The notes under the pieces were generated by a model. It saw only the letters and a program-made list of their open reading frames with translations, was not told where the DNA came from and did not search any database. Below are positions 1 through 8,043 of a stretch of DNA of 60,151 nt, one piece after another. The DNA is from a virus (lineage: Duplodnaviria > Caudoviricetes). The position numbers and the translations under genes were made by a program. Position 1 is the first letter of the stretch. Each line of letters opens with the position of its first letter. Where the stretch lies: positions 1 through 60,151 of IMG/VR virus record IMGVR_UViG_3300008113_000221, one strand, 5' to 3'.

Positions 1-1
1 A

Positions 2-193
2 GTTACTGCATCTGTTAAGTCTTATGAGTTAGTTTTTTTCTATCCTTGTGAATACGGCATTGAAACCCTTGACGGCTTATACTCATGGGAGAGCAAAGAC
101 CCAGCAAACAGGCGATTGATAGAAGTGGAAAGCCTTGATGCGGCATACTCCATAATTGACAATAAAAAACTACTAAAGACGTTTGCGGCTTAA
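2..193 (+). CDS. hypothetical early protein, 5'-truncated by the window edge
   Basis: Open frame read by hand from base 2 (VTASVKSYEL...LLKTFAA*), TAA at 191-193. Confidence 0.6.
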   Translation, partial: VTASVKSYELVFFYPCEYGIETLDGLYSWESKDPANRRLIEVESLDAAYSIIDNKKLLKTFAA

Positions 194-221
194 CCAATTT
201 TTAACCAATAAATTTAAACAC

Positions 222-524
222 ATGAACACACAAACATTAACAATTCACGGACTATCTGAAAACATTGCATATTGCGAAGCTCAAGGACTTGCTAATGTCT
301 TTTCGGCTTATGCTGAACATTGTGCAGGGGAAACAATCATGGACGGCGGGGCAGGTTTCAATCCCAATTCGGGATATATTTACATAGCCCTTGAAAATGG
401 CATTCAAATTTGTTCCATGCTTGGTAGAGAGGTTGAATACCTTGTAACAGACTTTGAAGACGGGGAAGAAACTTTCTTCAGTACATACAATGAGGCGGAG
501 GAATTTTTGTGCAAAGAAGCATAA
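222..524 (+). CDS. hypothetical acidic early protein
   Basis: ORF track 183..524; true start probably ATG222 after the shared TAAACAC-ATG motif. Confidence 0.75.
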   Translation: MNTQTLTIHGLSENIAYCEAQGLANVFSAYAEHCAGETIMDGGAGFNPNSGYIYIALENGIQICSMLGREVEYLVTDFEDGEETFFSTYNEAEEFLCKEA

Positions 525-531
525 ACAATAA

Positions 532-558
532 ACGGGCTGAAATATGCCCGTATTTTTT
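532..558 (+). terminator. hairpin plus U-tract (intrinsic terminator-like)
   Basis: ACGGGC-TGAAATAT-GCCCGT-A-TTTTTT, intergenic. Confidence 0.6.
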
Positions 559-577
559 AACCTTAAATTTTAAACAC

Positions 578-799
578 ATGAAACAGATTTTTGCAAAATT
601 CAACAGCAAATGCGCTGAAACTGGTAAAACATTAAAAAAGGGAGATTTGATATTTTACGACTATTCAAGCCGTAAGGCATACCACATAGACAGCCAAGCA
701 GCTAAAGGAGACAATGAAACAGAAAGTACAAAAAACTACATTAATGCCCAAGAGGAGGCGTACTGGGATAATTTAACGGGCGGATATTATTCAAGATAA
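578..799 (+). CDS. hypothetical early protein
   Basis: ORF track; ATG578 after TAAACAC. Confidence 0.75.
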   Translation: MKQIFAKFNSKCAETGKTLKKGDLIFYDYSSRKAYHIDSQAAKGDNETESTKNYINAQEEAYWDNLTGGYYSR

Positions 800-805
800 A
801 AACGA

Positions 806-858
806 GGTTAGCTGATGAGGATTGAATATCCGAAACGGGCATTTTGCCCGTATTAACC
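806..858 (+). ncRNA. type I hammerhead ribozyme
   Basis: Stem I GGTTAG/TTAACC; core CTGATGA 812-818; stem II GGAT-TGAAT-ATCC; GAAA 832-835; stem III CGGGC-ATTTT-GCCCG; cleavage triplet GTA 850-852. Confidence 0.9.
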
Positions 859-871
859 AAACATTTAAAAA

Positions 872-970
872 ATGCAAACGATTAAAACTTTTGCCGTTCC
901 TCTCATTGTCCTTGTTATTGTTTCAGCATGTTTCATCATGCAAGTTTACACAATGGCAATAAACTGGTAA
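872..970 (+). CDS. 32-aa single-transmembrane peptide
   Basis: Read by hand: MQTIKTFAVPLIVLVIVSACFIMQVYTMAINW*; A-rich start context; fills the gap between ribozyme and hairpin. Confidence 0.6.
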   Translation: MQTIKTFAVPLIVLVIVSACFIMQVYTMAINW

Positions 971-977
971 AGAATTA

Positions 978-1002
978 AGGCGGTGAAATTCCGCCTATTT
1001 TT
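978..1002 (+). terminator. hairpin plus U-tract (intrinsic terminator-like)
   Basis: AGGCGG-TGAAATT-CCGCCT-ATTTTT. Confidence 0.6.
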
Positions 1003-1023
1003 CAATCCTTTAACGTAATACAC

Positions 1024-1218
1024 ATGAGAAACATAGAAACAAAATACATATTTTTTAAGACGGAAAATGAAGCTATTAACCACATGATAGACAAAAGCTA
1101 CCAATACATTGACCCGATAAAATTTGAACATGAAATAATTAACAAAAAATGCTATTATTCAAAAACACATAACATAATTTTTATAGTTGATGAACTTGGC
1201 ATATTAACAACTGATTAA
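1024..1218 (+). CDS. hypothetical early protein
   Basis: ORF with ATACAC-ATG start. Confidence 0.7.
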   Translation: MRNIETKYIFFKTENEAINHMIDKSYQYIDPIKFEHEIINKKCYYSKTHNIIFIVDELGILTTD

Positions 1219-1261
1219 CAAGTCATTGTGAGCTATTTAACATTTCAGCACATAATTTTAC
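1204..1261 (+). promoter_or_regulatory. early promoter P1 with phased TTAACA boxes
   Basis: TTAACA at 1204, 1215, 1237; TTGTGA at 1226; TAATTTTAC at 1253 (variant of the Bacteroidota -7 element TAnnTTTG). Confidence 0.7.
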
Positions 1262-1294
1262 ATTACAATTTTAAACACACAAAAAACCAAACAC

Positions 1295-1585
1295 ATGGAA
1301 CAGATTAAAACTATTGACATTAACGCAAAAGAGTGGTTTGACAAGGTGAACGGGAATAGCTATTTTTCAGCCGAAATAGTTACAAATTATGGCATGGATG
1401 ATGCTAAAATGTATGTGCTACCTTTTCAATATGGCTACGATGACCACTACAAACACATGGCAGCAAAAGAATTATTTGAACAAGGCATAATATCAACAGA
1501 GAAATTTTGGGAACTAAGAGAGCAGGGAATAATAGTGAGAGCCAACATACAGCATAATTGCAAAAAAAGGGAACTGATACATTAA
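1295..1585 (+). CDS. hypothetical early protein
   Basis: ORF with AAACAC-ATG start. Confidence 0.8.
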   Translation: MEQIKTIDINAKEWFDKVNGNSYFSAEIVTNYGMDDAKMYVLPFQYGYDDHYKHMAAKELFEQGIISTEKFWELREQGIIVRANIQHNCKKRELIH

Positions 1586-1639
1586 CAGCTGATTAACAAT
1601 GTATTGTGAGTTCTTTAACATCTTACAAATTACCTTTAC
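1582..1639 (+). promoter_or_regulatory. early promoter P2 with phased TTAACA boxes
   Basis: TTAACA at 1582, 1593, 1615; TTGTGA at 1604; TACCTTTAC at 1631; spacing identical to P1. Confidence 0.7.
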
Positions 1640-1662
1640 TTCATAATCAAAAACACAAACAC

Positions 1663-1830
1663 ATGAGCAAAGAAACACTAAAGGAAGCAATTGAAACCTA
1701 CGGAAAAGAAATCGTATCGGAAGTAATACAGATAGTTGAACTTGCCGACACAGACGGGGCATGGGCAACATTCCAAGACATGGGCATGGAGGAACATGCC
1801 GAAATAGTTGAAATGCTATATTTTAACTAA
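1663..1830 (+). CDS. hypothetical acidic early protein
   Basis: ATG1663 after AAACAC, in the frame of track ORF 1606..1830. Confidence 0.7.
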   Translation: MSKETLKEAIETYGKEIVSEVIQIVELADTDGAWATFQDMGMEEHAEIVEMLYFN

Positions 1831-1835
1831 CCCGA

Positions 1836-1871
1836 ACGGGAACGGGAAACCCATAAACCCGTATTTTTTTT
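1836..1871 (+). terminator. branched hairpin plus U-tract
   Basis: ACGGG...CCCGT enclosing GGG-AAA-CCC, followed by A and a T run. Confidence 0.5.
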
Positions 1872-1892
1872 AACCAAACAAATAAAATACAC

Positions 1893-2339
1893 ATGAATCA
1901 AATTATACCTGAATTTGAAATAAAGCTAAAGATTAAAGGAAAGAAATCGGAACTGAAACAAATTAGAGGTTCAGAAGATGCAGCCGAGATATGCCGCATG
2001 TGTTTTGATGAAGGAAAAATAAATTGGATTGAAGAATTTATCGTAATAGGACTGAATAGAGCAAATAAGGTACAAGGTTTCTATAAAGTAAGTTCGGGAG
2101 GAGTTACGGGAACAGTTGCCGACCCAAGAATCGTTTTTCAATTTGCACTATTAAGCAATGCAACAAGCATAATAATAGCACACAACCATCCAAGTGGTAA
2201 CCTAAAGCCCTCTGACGCTGATATAACCCTAACCAAGAAAATGAAACAATCGGGAGAAGCATTGGATATCAAACTACTTGACCATATCATAGTAACAGAC
2301 GAAGGTTACACATCATTGTCAGACGAAGGAGTTATCTAA
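1893..2339 (+). CDS. radC: RadC-like JAB/MPN domain protein
   Basis: EEFIVIGLN, SSGGVTGTVADPR, AHNHPSGNLKPSDAD and IKLLDHIIV motifs. Confidence 0.9.
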   Translation: MNQIIPEFEIKLKIKGKKSELKQIRGSEDAAEICRMCFDEGKINWIEEFIVIGLNRANKVQGFYKVSSGGVTGTVADPRIVFQFALLSNATSIIIAHNHPSGNLKPSDADITLTKKMKQSGEALDIKLLDHIIVTDEGYTSLSDEGVI

Positions 2340-2368
2340 ACAACATAAAACACAATAAAACTAAACAC

Positions 2369-2554
2369 ATGAAACATTTACACACAAAATTTAATGAAGT
2401 TATCGTATCGTACAAGTTAGACCCATTTACAGAACTTGAATATAGTTCAATCACTGAAATGTTCCACAACATGACAGAGAATGATGTTATCAACCTTGCC
2501 CATGACTACGCAAAGGAGTTGATAGTTTTTGACTACGAAACAATGTATGTTTAA
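2369..2554 (+). CDS. hypothetical early protein
   Basis: ORF with TAAACAC-ATG start. Confidence 0.7.
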   Translation: MKHLHTKFNEVIVSYKLDPFTELEYSSITEMFHNMTENDVINLAHDYAKELIVFDYETMYV

Positions 2555-2597
2555 CAACCCATTAACAACAAGTAATTAATCTGACAACTATTTTTAC
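2551..2597 (+). promoter_or_regulatory. early promoter P3
   Basis: TTAACA at 2551 and 2562; TATTTTTAC at 2589; same helical phase as P1 and P2. Confidence 0.65.
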
Positions 2598-2615
2598 ATT
2601 CTAAACAAAAAACAT

Positions 2616-2762
2616 ATGGAAAGTATAATTTTTCAGAACAAATGGTGCAAAATAGTGCAAATAGACACATACTATGTGCTGAAATCAAAATCAGACAAGT
2701 ATAATGACCAGTATTTTTTAACCTTATCAGATGCCTATAAAAATATAGGAATAAGATACTAA
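2616..2762 (+). CDS. hypothetical 48-aa early protein
   Basis: Read by hand: MESIIFQNKW...NIGIRY*. Confidence 0.55.
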   Translation: MESIIFQNKWCKIVQIDTYYVLKSKSDKYNDQYFLTLSDAYKNIGIRY

Positions 2763-2774
2763 AACACACATACC

Positions 2775-3371
2775 ATGAGAACAATAGAAACACAACTATT
2801 CAAATTCAGCGAATTGTCAGATGATGCTAAGAAATTAGCAATAGAGCAATACAGAGAAAGGGAATACTTTGATGACTGGGGAATTAGATGGGTAATAGAT
2901 GATTGCTACCTATTTGAACCTAAATATGAGGAATTGCATAAGCTATTTGGCAAGGAATATGATGACAGACAAAAACCGATTATAGGAAATACAAGGAAAG
3001 TTTATTTTGATACAGACAGAAATTCACATCTTGATGCTGATGAAGGTATTATCATAAACGATGAAAGGATGTTTCTAATATGGTTAGGAATACCAGAAAG
3101 TATGCACGAATTTGTTTATTTCACAATAAGAGACAAAGGTGGAAGATATACCGATACTATCATAGAATTTGAACCCAATGACTGGGAGCATGAATTTTCA
3201 GATGAAGAAAATAAAATACTTGAGGATGCTGCCGATAAATTTTCAGACCACATGGATAACGTGCTGAACAATATAAAGAAAAGTCTTGAAGACTATTATT
3301 CAGACGAAAATTTAATGGAACAACTTGACGTAAATGAATATGAATACCACGAAGATGGTACAAGATATTGA
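2775..3371 (+). CDS. hypothetical acidic early protein
   Basis: 198-aa ORF, rich in D/E and aromatic residues. Confidence 0.8.
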   Translation: MRTIETQLFKFSELSDDAKKLAIEQYREREYFDDWGIRWVIDDCYLFEPKYEELHKLFGKEYDDRQKPIIGNTRKVYFDTDRNSHLDADEGIIINDERMFLIWLGIPESMHEFVYFTIRDKGGRYTDTIIEFEPNDWEHEFSDEENKILEDAADKFSDHMDNVLNNIKKSLEDYYSDENLMEQLDVNEYEYHEDGTRY

Positions 3372-3393
3372 TAACCAATAAAATATAAAACAC

Positions 3394-3753
3394 ATGACAC
3401 AATCATTTTACAATCGCTACAATGACCTAAGAGATGAGGTTAAGAATGAAATTATTGACTACATCAACAAACATGAATGCGGAGATATTCATAATTCAGA
3501 AGAAGAATTCTATGACCTACCAAGAACATTTTATGTAGATAAATATGGGCATTACAATGAATATGCCATACTTGGGGCAAGAATAGAATGTGATAGGCTG
3601 ATATTTGACGGATTCGGGTTGGGAAATAATTATGGACACGACATGGCATTTTATGAATATGAACTAAACCTACCGACAATGATTGAAATACTTGATGAGC
3701 TATACAAGATACCAATTAACCCTAAATTAATTAACACACAAGTACAAAATTAA
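3394..3753 (+). CDS. hypothetical early protein
   Basis: ORF with AAACAC-ATG start. Confidence 0.75.
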   Translation: MTQSFYNRYNDLRDEVKNEIIDYINKHECGDIHNSEEEFYDLPRTFYVDKYGHYNEYAILGARIECDRLIFDGFGLGNNYGHDMAFYEYELNLPTMIEILDELYKIPINPKLINTQVQN

Positions 3754-3765
3754 AAACATATTAAA

Positions 3766-3927
3766 ATGATTAAAGAAACGCAATTAGACAACCTTAGGGC
3801 AATGATATACAACTTGCTTATATCTAACCCAGAAATGGGATTAGGGGATATGCCGCAATGCAGTGATGCAGCCAATATATTAGTAGATGAATGGATTGAA
3901 CTAAACAATATAAAAATACAACTATGA
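3766..3927 (+). CDS. hypothetical 53-aa early protein
   Basis: Read by hand: MIKETQLDNL...NIKIQL*; ATGA overlap with the next gene. Confidence 0.6.
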   Translation: MIKETQLDNLRAMIYNLLISNPEMGLGDMPQCSDAANILVDEWIELNNIKIQL

Positions 3928-4172
3928 AACAATTTACAGACACAGACATTATCAATGAGCTGAAAAGCAGAGGATATAATACCAGCCTATTGTTCAACCT
4001 ATATGATGTTGAATTTGCCGTTAAGCAATACGAAGAAGATGCAGGTAGCCCAATAGACATGGATGATACAGACATGGCTAACATACTGGATGAAATTAAC
4101 TACGAATGGTACACTGAACAGATTAACCAAGACATATACCAAGCAGTATCTGACTACGTTAAATACTATTAA
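3924..4172 (+). CDS. hypothetical acidic early protein
   Basis: ORF track. Confidence 0.7.
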   Translation: MKQFTDTDIINELKSRGYNTSLLFNLYDVEFAVKQYEEDAGSPIDMDDTDMANILDEINYEWYTEQINQDIYQAVSDYVKYY

Positions 4173-4215
4173 CAACCCTTTAACAACATTCAATAACACA
4201 CATTAATAACTTTAC
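4169..4215 (+). promoter_or_regulatory. early promoter P4
   Basis: TTAACA at 4169 and 4180; TAACTTTAC at 4207; shares TTAACAACCCnTTAACAACA with P3. Confidence 0.65.
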
Positions 4216-4228
4216 AAAAAACACACAC

Positions 4229-4531
4229 ATGAAAACTTACACATTCAACATTGACAGAAAATGTACTATCTGGTATAGGGAATATCATGAAGTACAAGCA
4301 AGTAGCAAAGAAGAAGCTGAAAAGATTATGATTGAGAATTTCACTGACGGAACAACAGATGAAACTTTTTCGTATCAAGAAGCCCTATATGACACCCTTG
4401 AAGATATGTTCCCAGAAGATAATGGCGGACACTCTACGTTTGAGCTGGTGGATGAAGATGGCGATAGTATTGCAGACAACACAATGATAGTATCAAATAA
4501 TTCTATAACAATAAAAAACACACAACAATGA
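4229..4531 (+). CDS. hypothetical highly acidic early protein
   Basis: ORF with ACACAC-ATG start. Confidence 0.75.
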   Translation: MKTYTFNIDRKCTIWYREYHEVQASSKEEAEKIMIENFTDGTTDETFSYQEALYDTLEDMFPEDNGGHSTFELVDEDGDSIADNTMIVSNNSITIKNTQQ

Positions 4532-4737
4532 AACTTTGGATTGAAAAACGAAATGAATTTAACAAGTATTCTAAGAAGTTCCAAGCAGAATACTTCATCA
4601 TGATGCAAGAGGAAACTAATTTACCCACCTTGTTATTCATATCCGATAGCCTTGACGATGCTGAATATATGTTCGGCAAGATAGCAGAAGAAATTAAACC
4701 AGCAGAAAAAGAAATCATTAAAGAAATAACACTATGA
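4528..4737 (+). CDS. hypothetical protein
   Basis: ATGA-coupled ORF. Confidence 0.7.
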   Translation: MKLWIEKRNEFNKYSKKFQAEYFIMMQEETNLPTLLFISDSLDDAEYMFGKIAEEIKPAEKEIIKEITL

Positions 4738-4931
4738 ACGCACACGCACTATTAAACTACTTGCTCATGCTTAAGAAGAATGGGCAAGACCTTAGCCGAA
4801 TATCCGTAAATTTCAGAATTGACTATGATTCTGACGTAATACCAGTGAACTTCGCCGAAGAAGATTTGTATGACGCTGAAACCAATAGCATACTTGAATC
4901 AATTTGCTTACTTAATAACATAAATCAATAA
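4734..4931 (+). CDS. hypothetical protein
   Basis: ATGA-coupled ORF. Confidence 0.7.
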   Translation: MNAHALLNYLLMLKKNGQDLSRISVNFRIDYDSDVIPVNFAEEDLYDAETNSILESICLLNNINQ

Positions 4932-4935
4932 AATA

Positions 4936-5280
4936 ATGAGAAAATTTAACTTAGACGCAGCCCTTAAGGGAGTTCCAGTCGCTACTAAGGATGGACATGA
5001 GGTACATATTATAGACGCTAAAGAAACTTCTAATGGCACAACTATCGTTGGCTGGATTGGAGACATAATAGCCACATGGGAGAGAGATGGAAGGCACAGA
5101 AAAGGTAGCGATAGCGACCTTGACCTATTCCTTGCAGGAAAAGATGACTATTACATTAACATCTATAAAGATGATGAAGGGGTATGGGCAGCTGAACACA
5201 TGTACGAAACACGTGAAATGGCAGTAACTATGGGAGAAGATACGCCATACTTTTATGACACTATAAAAATTGAGCTATGA
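4936..5280 (+). CDS. hypothetical phage protein (FNLDAALKG-PV-TKDG type)
   Basis: ORF track; N-terminal motif of a kind common in small phage proteins. Confidence 0.75.
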   Translation: MRKFNLDAALKGVPVATKDGHEVHIIDAKETSNGTTIVGWIGDIIATWERDGRHRKGSDSDLDLFLAGKDDYYINIYKDDEGVWAAEHMYETREMAVTMGEDTPYFYDTIKIEL

Positions 5281-5501
5281 AAACAGGCAGCCAGATAATA
5301 GCAGACGGAGATAGGGTAAACATTACCGCCCACTACCAGTACACTCTGGGCATGAATGAAATACTACCACACGTTCAAGAGGTCAGCATAAGGCTAACAG
5401 ATTTATATGTAGAATTTGAAAATGGCACACATATAAAGCTATTGACTAAGCTAACCAAGAGCCAAGAAGATTTGATTATCAAGTCAATACAAATTGACTG
5501 A
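5277..5501 (+). CDS. hypothetical protein
   Basis: ATGA-coupled ORF. Confidence 0.65.
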   Translation: MKTGSQIIADGDRVNITAHYQYTLGMNEILPHVQEVSIRLTDLYVEFENGTHIKLLTKLTKSQEDLIIKSIQID

Positions 5502-5567
5502 AAAAATATCTATAATTTATTTTTTTAATTATTCACAAGTGTATAACTTGCACACAAACCAAACACA

Positions 5568-5774
5568 ATGACAGCACAAAACACGCTGAAAGCCTTGTAC
5601 GCCTTTACTTCAGACCAGTATGAGAATTTGAAGAAGGACTACAACAAGCTACCGAAACAAGAGAAGTCCAGACTGCCCTTCACACTATTTATCATCGGAG
5701 TATTTGCAAACCTTATTGAAGACGCAAACAAAAAACAACATGATAAACCTACTGAAGAAAAGAAAGTGGATTAA
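5568..5774 (+). CDS. hypothetical protein
   Basis: ORF with AAACACA-ATG start. Confidence 0.7.
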   Translation: MTAQNTLKALYAFTSDQYENLKKDYNKLPKQEKSRLPFTLFIIGVFANLIEDANKKQHDKPTEEKKVD

Positions 5775-5913
5775 AACCTACGATTTCACATCAGAAGATG
5801 GGGCATACAGACACGAGATACTAAGATGCGAATCATCTGGGATGCTGAAACACATTAAGACACACAGAAACATTAAACACACTAAAATTATCAAACCATG
5901 CAAAACAAAATAA
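5740..5913 (+). CDS. hypothetical basic protein
   Basis: ATG5740 in the frame of track ORF 5704..5913. Confidence 0.5.
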   Translation: MINLLKKRKWIKTYDFTSEDGAYRHEILRCESSGMLKHIKTHRNIKHTKIIKPCKTK

Positions 5914-6104
5914 GTTCATTCGCCAAGATGGATGAAGCAGAAAGGATGCTATACGTCGCAAGATTACACCACGCAATATGGCATGACGAGTCAGTATATA
6001 GGGCAGTTGATATGCTGATAAGTAGAAGTGAGGAGAGAGTTCCAGAAGCCATATACTTTCCTAATGGAGAGCAGATTGATAACCTTACAAACGAAGCAAT
6101 ATGA
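5898..6104 (+). CDS. hypothetical protein
   Basis: ORF track. Confidence 0.7.
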   Translation: MQNKISSFAKMDEAERMLYVARLHHAIWHDESVYRAVDMLISRSEERVPEAIYFPNGEQIDNLTNEAI

Positions 6105-7503: not shown

Positions 7504-8043
7504 ATGAAGAATCTATTAAAAGCCATGTACCAGTTCGCTGATATGGCCGAACCGATACTAAAAGACGCAGACAATCCTTTCTTTAAATCCAAGTTCGCAG
7601 CACTGGAGCATATCCAGCAGAGCATAAAGGAGCCATTAAAGAAGTGCGGACTTGTCCTTTCCCAGCCATCAGTAGTAATAGACGGAGCGCACTATGTAAA
7701 AAGCATATTGTTCCATGTGGAAAGCGGAGAATATATTGAATCTTACTTCCCAGTGGTAGCCATGAAGGGAACGCCACAAGACTATGGTTCGGCTACCAGT
7801 TACGCCAAGCGTTATGCCCTATCTGGGCTATTAAACCTTACTATTCAAGGAGAGGATGATGATGCAGAAACAGCAGAAGGCAGAGGTAAGTCTGCTCCTC
7901 ATCAAGACCAGAAGGAGTGGCTGAATAAAGGTTCAGAAGCTTTCATGAAGGTAAAGGGATTCTTAGATAAAGGAGGAGACATTAAAGAGGTAGAGAAGAA
8001 GTATAAGATTAGCAAAGAGGTAAGAGACTTATTAAGCAAATAA
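7504..8043 (+). CDS. erf: ERF-family ssDNA annealing protein
   Basis: NPFFKSKFAALE and PQDYGSATSYAKRYALSGLL...EDDDA signature. Confidence 0.88.
   Translation: MKNLLKAMYQFADMAEPILKDADNPFFKSKFAALEHIQQSIKEPLKKCGLVLSQPSVVIDGAHYVKSILFHVESGEYIESYFPVVAMKGTPQDYGSATSYAKRYALSGLLNLTIQGEDDDAETAEGRGKSAPHQDQKEWLNKGSEAFMKVKGFLDKGGDIKEVEKKYKISKEVRDLLSK

Follow-up and report, generated by a model that had tools for sequence, protein, structure and literature searches.

A phage element with the core and topology of a type I hammerhead ribozyme and the large subfamily of its phage relatives

Clustered hammerhead ribozymes that flank single genes or short gene blocks have been described in prophages and phages, and it was proposed that they process long transcripts into gene-length mRNAs (Perreault et al. 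2011, PMC3088659, part of which is drawn on here). According to the same part of that paper, tandem hammerheads cleaved during in vitro transcription, with examples spanning all three types; the anti-restriction gene ardA lies directly downstream of one copy, and among the early genes of a halovirus a hammerhead is found 13 nt upstream of a start codon, with a mapped 5′ end within 3 nt of the cut. The role of genome-encoded phage hammerheads was still given as unresolved in the part of a 2019 review that deals with them (PMC6765202). Here, we analyzed an element at positions 806-858 of IMG/VR record IMGVR_UViG_3300008113_000221, from a virus of the Caudoviricetes. The window is the whole record, 60,151 bases long and estimated to be 96% complete. 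Judged by its core, its topology and family-wide covariation, the element is a genuine type I hammerhead and another such ribozyme, the processing of long phage transcripts by hammerheads having been put forward already in 2011 (PMC3088659, in part). It resembles the clusters in that part of the paper in its phage intergenic position beside small genes, but differs from them in being single in its genome, in belonging to a uniform type I subfamily, and in that its cleavage is predicted whereas theirs was tested. What our analysis adds is the size and regularity of the subfamily, the finding that Rfam covers it poorly, and the indication of a small, probable membrane peptide gene that had gone unannotated.

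The hammerheads of eukaryotic RNA viruses offer a further comparison. They are likewise type I ribozymes in a short intergenic region that cut a few nucleotides before the next open reading frame (ORF), 7 nt in one fusarivirus, and they carry a long helix III, which the study describing them said to resemble that of bacterial and phage copies. They differ in residing in RNA genomes and in a proposed role in eukaryotic translation initiation, and the same study set its DNA phage matches aside.

The original prediction, made from the letters of the window alone, had described a canonical hammerhead with the full catalytic core and three stems, starting 7 nt after the stop codon of the gene at 578-799 and cutting 19 nt upstream of ATG872. 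Direct reading (Table 1), the minimum free energy (MFE) fold and a descriptor all recovered the core and the three stems, and the distances agree, with the stop codon at 797-799, the first element base at 806 and cleavage predicted after A852. The bases C3 U4 G5 A6 N7 G8 A9 and G12 A13 A14, the A15.1-U16.1 pair and an H17 that is not G are all present. The arrangement is that of type I: stem I is the open helix, loops close stems II and III, and the order is stem I, CUGAUGA, stem II, GAA, stem III, H and the 3′ strand of stem I. The word canonical therefore suits the core and the topology, but not the stem I pair beside the cut: the innermost pair, G811-U853, is a G-U wobble, which occurs in 1 of 119 aligned family members, namely the window copy itself.

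The MFE fold of 800-865 was exactly the three-way junction, at -18 kcal/mol (z = -3.0), and 1 of 200 shuffles was as good. A type I descriptor was written for this analysis and run on both strands of the 60-kb window, where it gave a single match, the element at 806-858. When run on both strands of 300 Markov shuffles (600 strands), it gave no match with equal stem lengths and two loose matches. Stem III shares the stem ACGGGC...GCCCGT and flanking bases with the terminator-like hairpin at 532-551, and the window has this sequence nowhere else (0 expected from 100 shuffles); a terminator scan of the window did not list the site 835-851, and no T run follows position 851. A long-range helix between 794-824, including the 5′ half of the ribozyme, and 895-923, within the ORF downstream, is predicted to lower the probability of the hammerhead fold. 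This competing helix reached -20 kcal/mol, but 63 of 500 shuffles were equally good, and it was rejected as a chance pairing.

Given that the relatives of protein 222-521, found in 39 IMG/VR loci, show no synteny beyond gene 222-521, the ribozyme family itself served as the comparison set. We searched viral contigs with a pattern holding only the core, stem II (GGAT...ATCC) and GAAAC, which left stems I and III unconstrained, and obtained 125 matches in 100 stretches. Stems I and III were both complete in 115 of the 123 usable matches, and stem I was at least 6 bp long in 114 of them; when the downstream 130 nt were shuffled, the corresponding counts were 31 and 4 out of 2460. The failures examined among the remaining eight had long or mismatched inserts in stem III, and a ninth failure, of the 125, was truncated by the locus end. 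A further 128 type I copies, which differ from these in the sequence of stem II, are present in the same loci and bring the total to 244 copies, 201 of them unique. Among the unique copies the dimensions are uniform, with a stem I of 6 bp in 173, a stem II of 4 bp in 169 and a loop II of 5 nt in 161, and the cleavage triplet is GUC in 150 and GUA in 31.

We then aligned 119 compact copies, including the window copy, the rows being chosen by a scanner that demanded pairing. The core was invariant or nearly so, while 15 of the 16 pairs changed on both sides, with a covariation score of 0.803 compared with 0.172 after shuffling, so that three covarying helices surround the core in the family alignment as in the MFE fold. 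Pairing was 98.3% in register, partly by construction, and 27-40% with the partners slid by 1-3 columns; the unbiased figure for the stems is the 115 of 123 against 31 of 2460 given above, in which rows were not chosen for pairing. A covariance model, R1, scored the window copy at 66.4 bits (E-value 1.9e-13), a score that is partly by construction because this copy is one of the 119 seed rows. The next best match in the window reached 13.2 bits and no other had an E-value below 2, which indicates that the phage has one copy.

Fast hammerhead cleavage at low Mg2+ needs a tertiary contact between stem I and loop II. Outside the core, the alignment conserves an A before stem I (115 of 119), an A after stem I (105) and the three bases of a U-N-A-N-U pattern in loop II (114, 104 and 101), and all of these are kept in the window copy as A805, A859, U823, A825 and U827. 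This conservation is a sequence pattern only. Taken together, these results place 806-858 in a large phage-borne type I subfamily, defined at the sequence level by an open stem I of 6 bp, a stem II of 4 bp, a U-N-A-N-U loop of 5 nt and a variable stem III. The window copy has the stem and loop lengths, the flanking A and the spacing to start and stop codons of this subfamily.

Table 1. Coordinates of the hammerhead element and its neighbours in the window
Feature	Positions	Strand	Remarks
Type I hammerhead ribozyme, whole element	806-858	+	Core and three helices read from sequence: GGTTAG-CTGATGA-GGAT[TGAAT]ATCC-GAA-ACGGGC[ATTTT]GCCCGT-A-TTAACC
Stem I, 5′ strand GGUUAG	806-811	+	Partner 853-858; 6 of 6 pair columns covary in the 119-sequence alignment
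Catalytic core C3-U4-G5-A6-U7-G8-A9 (CUGAUGA)	812-818	+	C, U, G, A, G and A invariant in 119 aligned sequences
Stem II GGAU/AUCC, loop UGAAU	819-831 (819-822/828-831; loop 823-827)	+	Usual G10.1-C11.1 pair present
Core G12-A13-A14 (GAA)	832-834	+	
Stem III ACGGGC/GCCCGT, loop ATTTT	835-851 (835-840/846-851)	+	Includes the A15.1-U16.1 pair (A835-U851)
Predicted cleavage site, after A852 (H17, triplet GUA) and before U853	852/853	+	From hammerhead numbering
Stem I, 3′ strand UUAACC; 5′ end of the predicted downstream product	853-858	+	Partner 806-811
A/U-rich leader without a Shine-Dalgarno sequence	859-871	+	
ORF of 32 aa, predicted single-pass membrane peptide	872-970	+	Starts at ATG872
Terminator-like hairpin ACGGGC-loop-GCCCGT and T run	532-557 (hairpin 532-551)	+	Upstream of gene 578-799
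Upstream small gene, 73 aa, from ATG578 to stop TAA 797-799	578-799	+	No PHROG or Pfam match
Terminator-like hairpin and T run	978-1003 (hairpin 978-996)	+	Directly 3′ of the peptide ORF

We further studied where the family members lie relative to genes. An ATG-initiated ORF of at least 25 aa started 10-35 nt past the predicted cut in 174 of the 201 unique copies (87%; median 23 nt), compared with 656 of 4020 random positions in the same loci; a cut just before a start codon, noted originally for the window copy alone, is thus a rule of the family. On the other side, the upstream stop codon ended within -15 to +10 nt of the first ribozyme base in most of the 189 copies that have an upstream ORF, and in 67 of the 189 it ended 6-10 nt inside the element, as the UAA of stem I or the UGA of the core. 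Hammerheads were confined to one strand in 97 of 99 loci. Arrays in which small ORFs alternate with ribozymes were found at L020:2292-8607, where 13 scanner matches give 12 distinct cut sites within about 6.3 kb, and at L061:2808-6441, with nine copies in 3.6 kb; in both, 0-6 nt separate the stop codon from the ribozyme and 19-28 nt the cut from the ATG. The copies of a single genome (L020) have stem I and stem II sequences in common and differ in stem III. The distances in the window, 6 nt from stop to element and 19 nt from cut to ATG, fall within the family distributions. Since tight packing puts any intergenic element near a start codon, this spacing by itself shows the location of the element only, and not a coupling of the cut to translation. 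We found no publication that quantifies the spacing of stop, ribozyme and start or describes the phage arrays of this subfamily, although the supplementary alignments of PMC3088659 may hold them.

Few of the 150 proteins encoded directly downstream of family ribozymes had a match to any family; at an E-value of at most 1e-5, the matches covered 21 PHROG families, with one or two proteins each, and five Pfam families. Those with names are an anti-restriction protein (ArdC N-terminal domain and zincin peptidase domain), three DNA methyltransferase families, DUF932 and an Imm5-like protein. Many ribozyme-bearing loci also encode relatives, 27-47% identical, of proteins from the + strand arm of the window, namely the 222-524 ORF, the RadC-like protein, Erf, the primase/helicase and the large terminase. 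When 185,579 species genomes were searched with the family pattern, only 16 stretches were obtained, and R1 confirmed copies in seven loci, several of them short contigs of metagenome-assembled genomes (MAGs) with 5-9 copies. Three short contigs (L146, L149 and L153), from MAGs that bear the labels Aliivibrio sp. and Gammaproteobacteria, have 5-9 family hammerheads each and look like phage fragments rather than host DNA. Among GenBank phages, neither megablast of 1-6000 nor blastn of 800-864 gave a match, and no cultured phage with this copy or one close to it was found.

Downstream of the predicted cut, the original prediction had placed the gene of a 32-aa single-transmembrane peptide. In the peptide, MQTIKTFAVPLIVLVIVSACFIMQVYTMAINW, a single stretch is strongly hydrophobic, the maximum Kyte-Doolittle value over a 19-residue window being 2.62. 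The peptide matches phrog_37607 weakly (E-value 1.5e-4); look-alikes of the peptide in an atlas scored at most 0.82, which is a lead only. A variant of the ORF was found in contigs of a wastewater run (X5), whose DNA is about 90% identical to the window; all counts of X5 differences are minimum values, taken among the differences listed. The ten listed differences in this one variant change seven codons, three synonymously and four conservatively (C>S, F>L, I>L and V>L), while the same differences read in the other two frames give eight and seven residue changes. In the family, 14 of 169 downstream ORFs are at most 50 aa long and 10 of these 14 are hydrophobic; among ORFs of at least 50 aa, membrane proteins are not enriched downstream of family ribozymes (8 of 155 compared with 117 of 1392 in the background). 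The hairpin at 978-996 after the stop codon, the pattern of X5 substitutions, the weak PHROG match and the family start-codon rule together suggest that ORF 872-970 is probably a real membrane peptide gene. The ORF, its hydropathy and coding-like substitutions in one relative thus speak for the gene that had been claimed, but stop short of proving it.

The locus itself changes among relatives. In X5, no listed difference falls within 812-858, and four fall in the 13-nt leader (863, 866, 870 and 871). X5 also has a contig in which 522 is joined to 799, stop codon to stop codon, and the ribozyme is kept, so the block 523-798 (276 nt, with the terminator-like hairpin and gene 578-799) is absent there; no relatives of protein 578-796 were found in viral contigs. 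Covariation in related phage contigs had been proposed as a check: the ribozyme family does covary, but the syntenic IMG/VR relatives mostly lack the element, and therefore the support comes from the ribozyme family and not from homologous loci. In the window the ribozyme lies between two co-oriented small genes, on a + strand arm that also has RadC, Erf and primase/helicase genes. The early operon of the original prediction was itself deduced rather than seen, and the terminator-like hairpins at 532-551 and 978-996 suggest that the unit may be a short bicistron rather than a section of a long operon.

We favor, with a probability of roughly 70%, a functional hammerhead that splits the transcript, with punctuation or insulation of the messages as the likely benefit. 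Once transcribed, the RNA would fold into the three-way junction and, soon after transcription, cut itself between A852 and U853. The upstream RNA would then carry gene 578-799 and end in the folded ribozyme with a 2′,3′-cyclic phosphate. The downstream RNA, of about 150 nt, would begin with a 5′-OH and a 19-nt unstructured leader lacking a Shine-Dalgarno sequence, encode the 32-aa peptide and end at the hairpin 978-1003. Each small early gene might in this way gain its own message with defined ends, its stability and translation being independent of the upstream context, which matches the proposal made for phage hammerheads in 2011 (the cited part of PMC3088659). A further suggestion of the original prediction, that cleavage releases the initiation region of the peptide from stem I, found no support, since the predicted mean unpaired probability of the leader at 855-871 was 0.73-0.76 uncleaved and 0.67 cleaved.

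Several observations weigh against a functional cut at this locus. A search for sequencing runs with this stretch listed none recorded as RNA in which ends at 852/853 might be seen, and the runs that were compared are DNA contigs only. An Rfam search for hammerheads had been proposed as a check, and the window copy failed every threshold. No family reached its gathering threshold in the whole window, a search of 700-1000 at an E-value of at most 10 listed no hammerhead family, and RF00163 Hammerhead_1, with a gathering score of 34 bits, gave no match at that limit in the whole record. The best match, on 795-870, was to RF03152 RAGATH-1-hammerhead, with 14.8 bits (E-value 1.6; threshold 56.3 bits) over model positions 26-77. 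In the predicted equilibrium ensemble of 700-1003, the hammerhead fold has a probability of only 0.056, and the G-U wobble beside the cut might slow cleavage. That the cut lies so near a start codon could be a mere consequence of tightly packed genes rather than of functional coupling, and because the copy is single, punctuation on a genome-wide scale does not apply to this phage. Moreover, a family hammerhead lies within 3 kb in only 6 of the 39 loci with relatives of gene 222-521 (4 of them distinct) and never at the same place, so the element is dispensable and patchily distributed.

The Rfam result can be read against the sister copies. In four related loci (L020, L036, L098 and L023), the descriptor found 32 type I copies, of which Rfam listed 7 at an E-value of at most 1 and only one reached a gathering score (RF00163, 36.2 bits). 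Scores of sister copies were 36.2, 31.5 and 30 bits with RF00163 and 42 and 33.8 bits with RF03152. Since 31 of the 32 copies found by the descriptor also miss the gathering score, the weakness lies with the models and not with the motif. The window copy shares the core and the type I topology with RF00163 but gives no match to it. With RF03152 it shares a similar short stem I and a GAC/GUC-type junction, matching the hammerhead part of the model. It differs from RF03152 in lacking the upstream RAGATH-1 hairpin (model positions 1-25), as the window bases at that place are the end of gene 578-799. Three other matches at an E-value of at most 10 on 700-1000, all at the level of chance, were rejected as noise: CyVA-1 (minus strand; 21.4 bits, threshold 41.4), a fragment of a fluoride riboswitch and a coronavirus UTR. 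On the minus strand of L036, a type III hammerhead (7855-7908; RF00008, 47.8 bits, threshold 48.5) stands among the type I copies of the same contig.

Four other explanations were weighed. The element might chiefly mark the boundary of a mobile gene cassette, either as a portable unit with its downstream gene or as a selfish repeat that spreads when near-identical copies recombine, the cleavage then serving to insulate or being incidental, and not tuned to this gene pair. The early regions are indeed mosaic, with relatives sharing only gene 222-521; the ribozyme is present patchily among relatives and is kept in the X5 contig that lacks 523-798, copies within one genome share their stem I and stem II sequences (L020), and in one pair of loci (L004 and L078) the likeness is 99% over the ribozyme and its downstream flank but 53% over the upstream flank. 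However, when 129 pairs of like ribozymes at different loci were scored, only that pair was clearly discordant, with one metagenome contig as a further case, and too few pairs were informative for this test to tell whether the ribozyme travels with the gene before it or the gene after it. A transposase or homing gene was not seen beside the element, and the strict covariation and core conservation indicate selection on the RNA fold, which a role purely at the DNA level would not need. We therefore consider this reading unlikely. Hardly more probable, and if anything somewhat less so, is that the copy is decaying or poorly active, so that it would be a hammerhead by its descent but without useful cleavage in vivo. 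Its unique wobble beside the cut, its GUA triplet in place of the commoner GUC (31 compared with 150 of 201), its single occurrence in the genome and its low Rfam scores would fit such decay, but all core bases are intact, the three stems are fully paired and the conserved positions outside the core are kept. The listed X5 differences also spare 812-858 although the flanks differ. In one X5 record, six differences fall over 90 nt, four of them listed and outside the ribozyme; by a hand estimate, which assumes that the two unlisted ones are outside as well, the probability that all six would miss the ribozyme is about 0.01.

A link to translation appears improbable, and clearly more so than either of the foregoing. 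A terminating ribosome would, from the size of its footprint, cover the stem I bases near the stop codon. Ribosomes finishing the upstream ORF could thus block folding, so that cleavage reports upstream translation, or the fold could control access to the start codon of the peptide. In the window, 6 nt separate the upstream stop from stem I, and the 67 of 189 family stops that end inside the element would suit such a switch. On the other hand, tight packing and the UAA and UGA triplets of the consensus would also lead one to expect stops inside the element, and the predicted accessibility of the leader barely changes with cleavage. Finally, the identity of stem III with the terminator-like hairpin at 532-551 raises the thought of a chance match, or of a terminator-like hairpin near a fortuitous CUGAUGA. 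We give this almost no weight: the shuffled strands, the R1 score and the control with shuffled downstream sequence rule it out as chance, site 835-851 is not a listed terminator and has no T run, and more than 200 relatives have the same architecture.

Beyond a functional hammerhead that splits the transcript, we tentatively raise a broader possibility, which we hold to be considerably less likely than that reading, that the type I hammerheads of this phage subfamily are portable expression insulators moving with a cassette of a downstream early or anti-defence gene. If this is true, a cassette would bring its own cutter, its message would start with the same 5′-OH leader of about 20 nt wherever it lands, and the preceding message would end in a folded ribozyme capped by a cyclic phosphate. 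In this phage, the outcome would be a stand-alone message of about 150 nt for the 32-aa membrane peptide, with its dosage uncoupled from the gene in front. RiboJ-type insulators are engineered from the hammerhead of a plant satellite RNA with an added hairpin, and their cut before the ribosome-binding region removes the upstream context; the likeness of the window copy to them is an analogy of mechanism only. Portable phage insulators would be a natural counterpart of such engineered ribozymes and a bacterial-virus analogue of tRNA punctuation.

Taken alone, the window copy adds little, but its family is a clean test bed for the role of phage hammerheads, with hundreds of near-uniform type I ribozymes, a fixed spacing of stop and start codons and, in some genomes, arrays that reach 13 copies in about 6 kb. 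The downstream genes are mostly ORFans; anti-restriction and DNA methyltransferase genes are among the few that have a name. Given that standard Rfam thresholds miss most copies, routine phage annotation will overlook hammerheads of this subfamily. The position of a ribozyme may also flag small genes that gene callers skip, such as the peptide ORF 872-970.

The rest of the window holds a late arm on the minus strand (16659-60151), with portal and virion proteins and four very large ORFs of 1999, 1205, 1446 and 1240 aa; those of 1999 and 1205 aa have no PHROG match at 1e-5. A further ORF of the window, at 2775-3371 (198 aa), matches phrog_10310 and phrog_5162, and members of both families are encoded directly downstream of hammerheads in other phage contigs.

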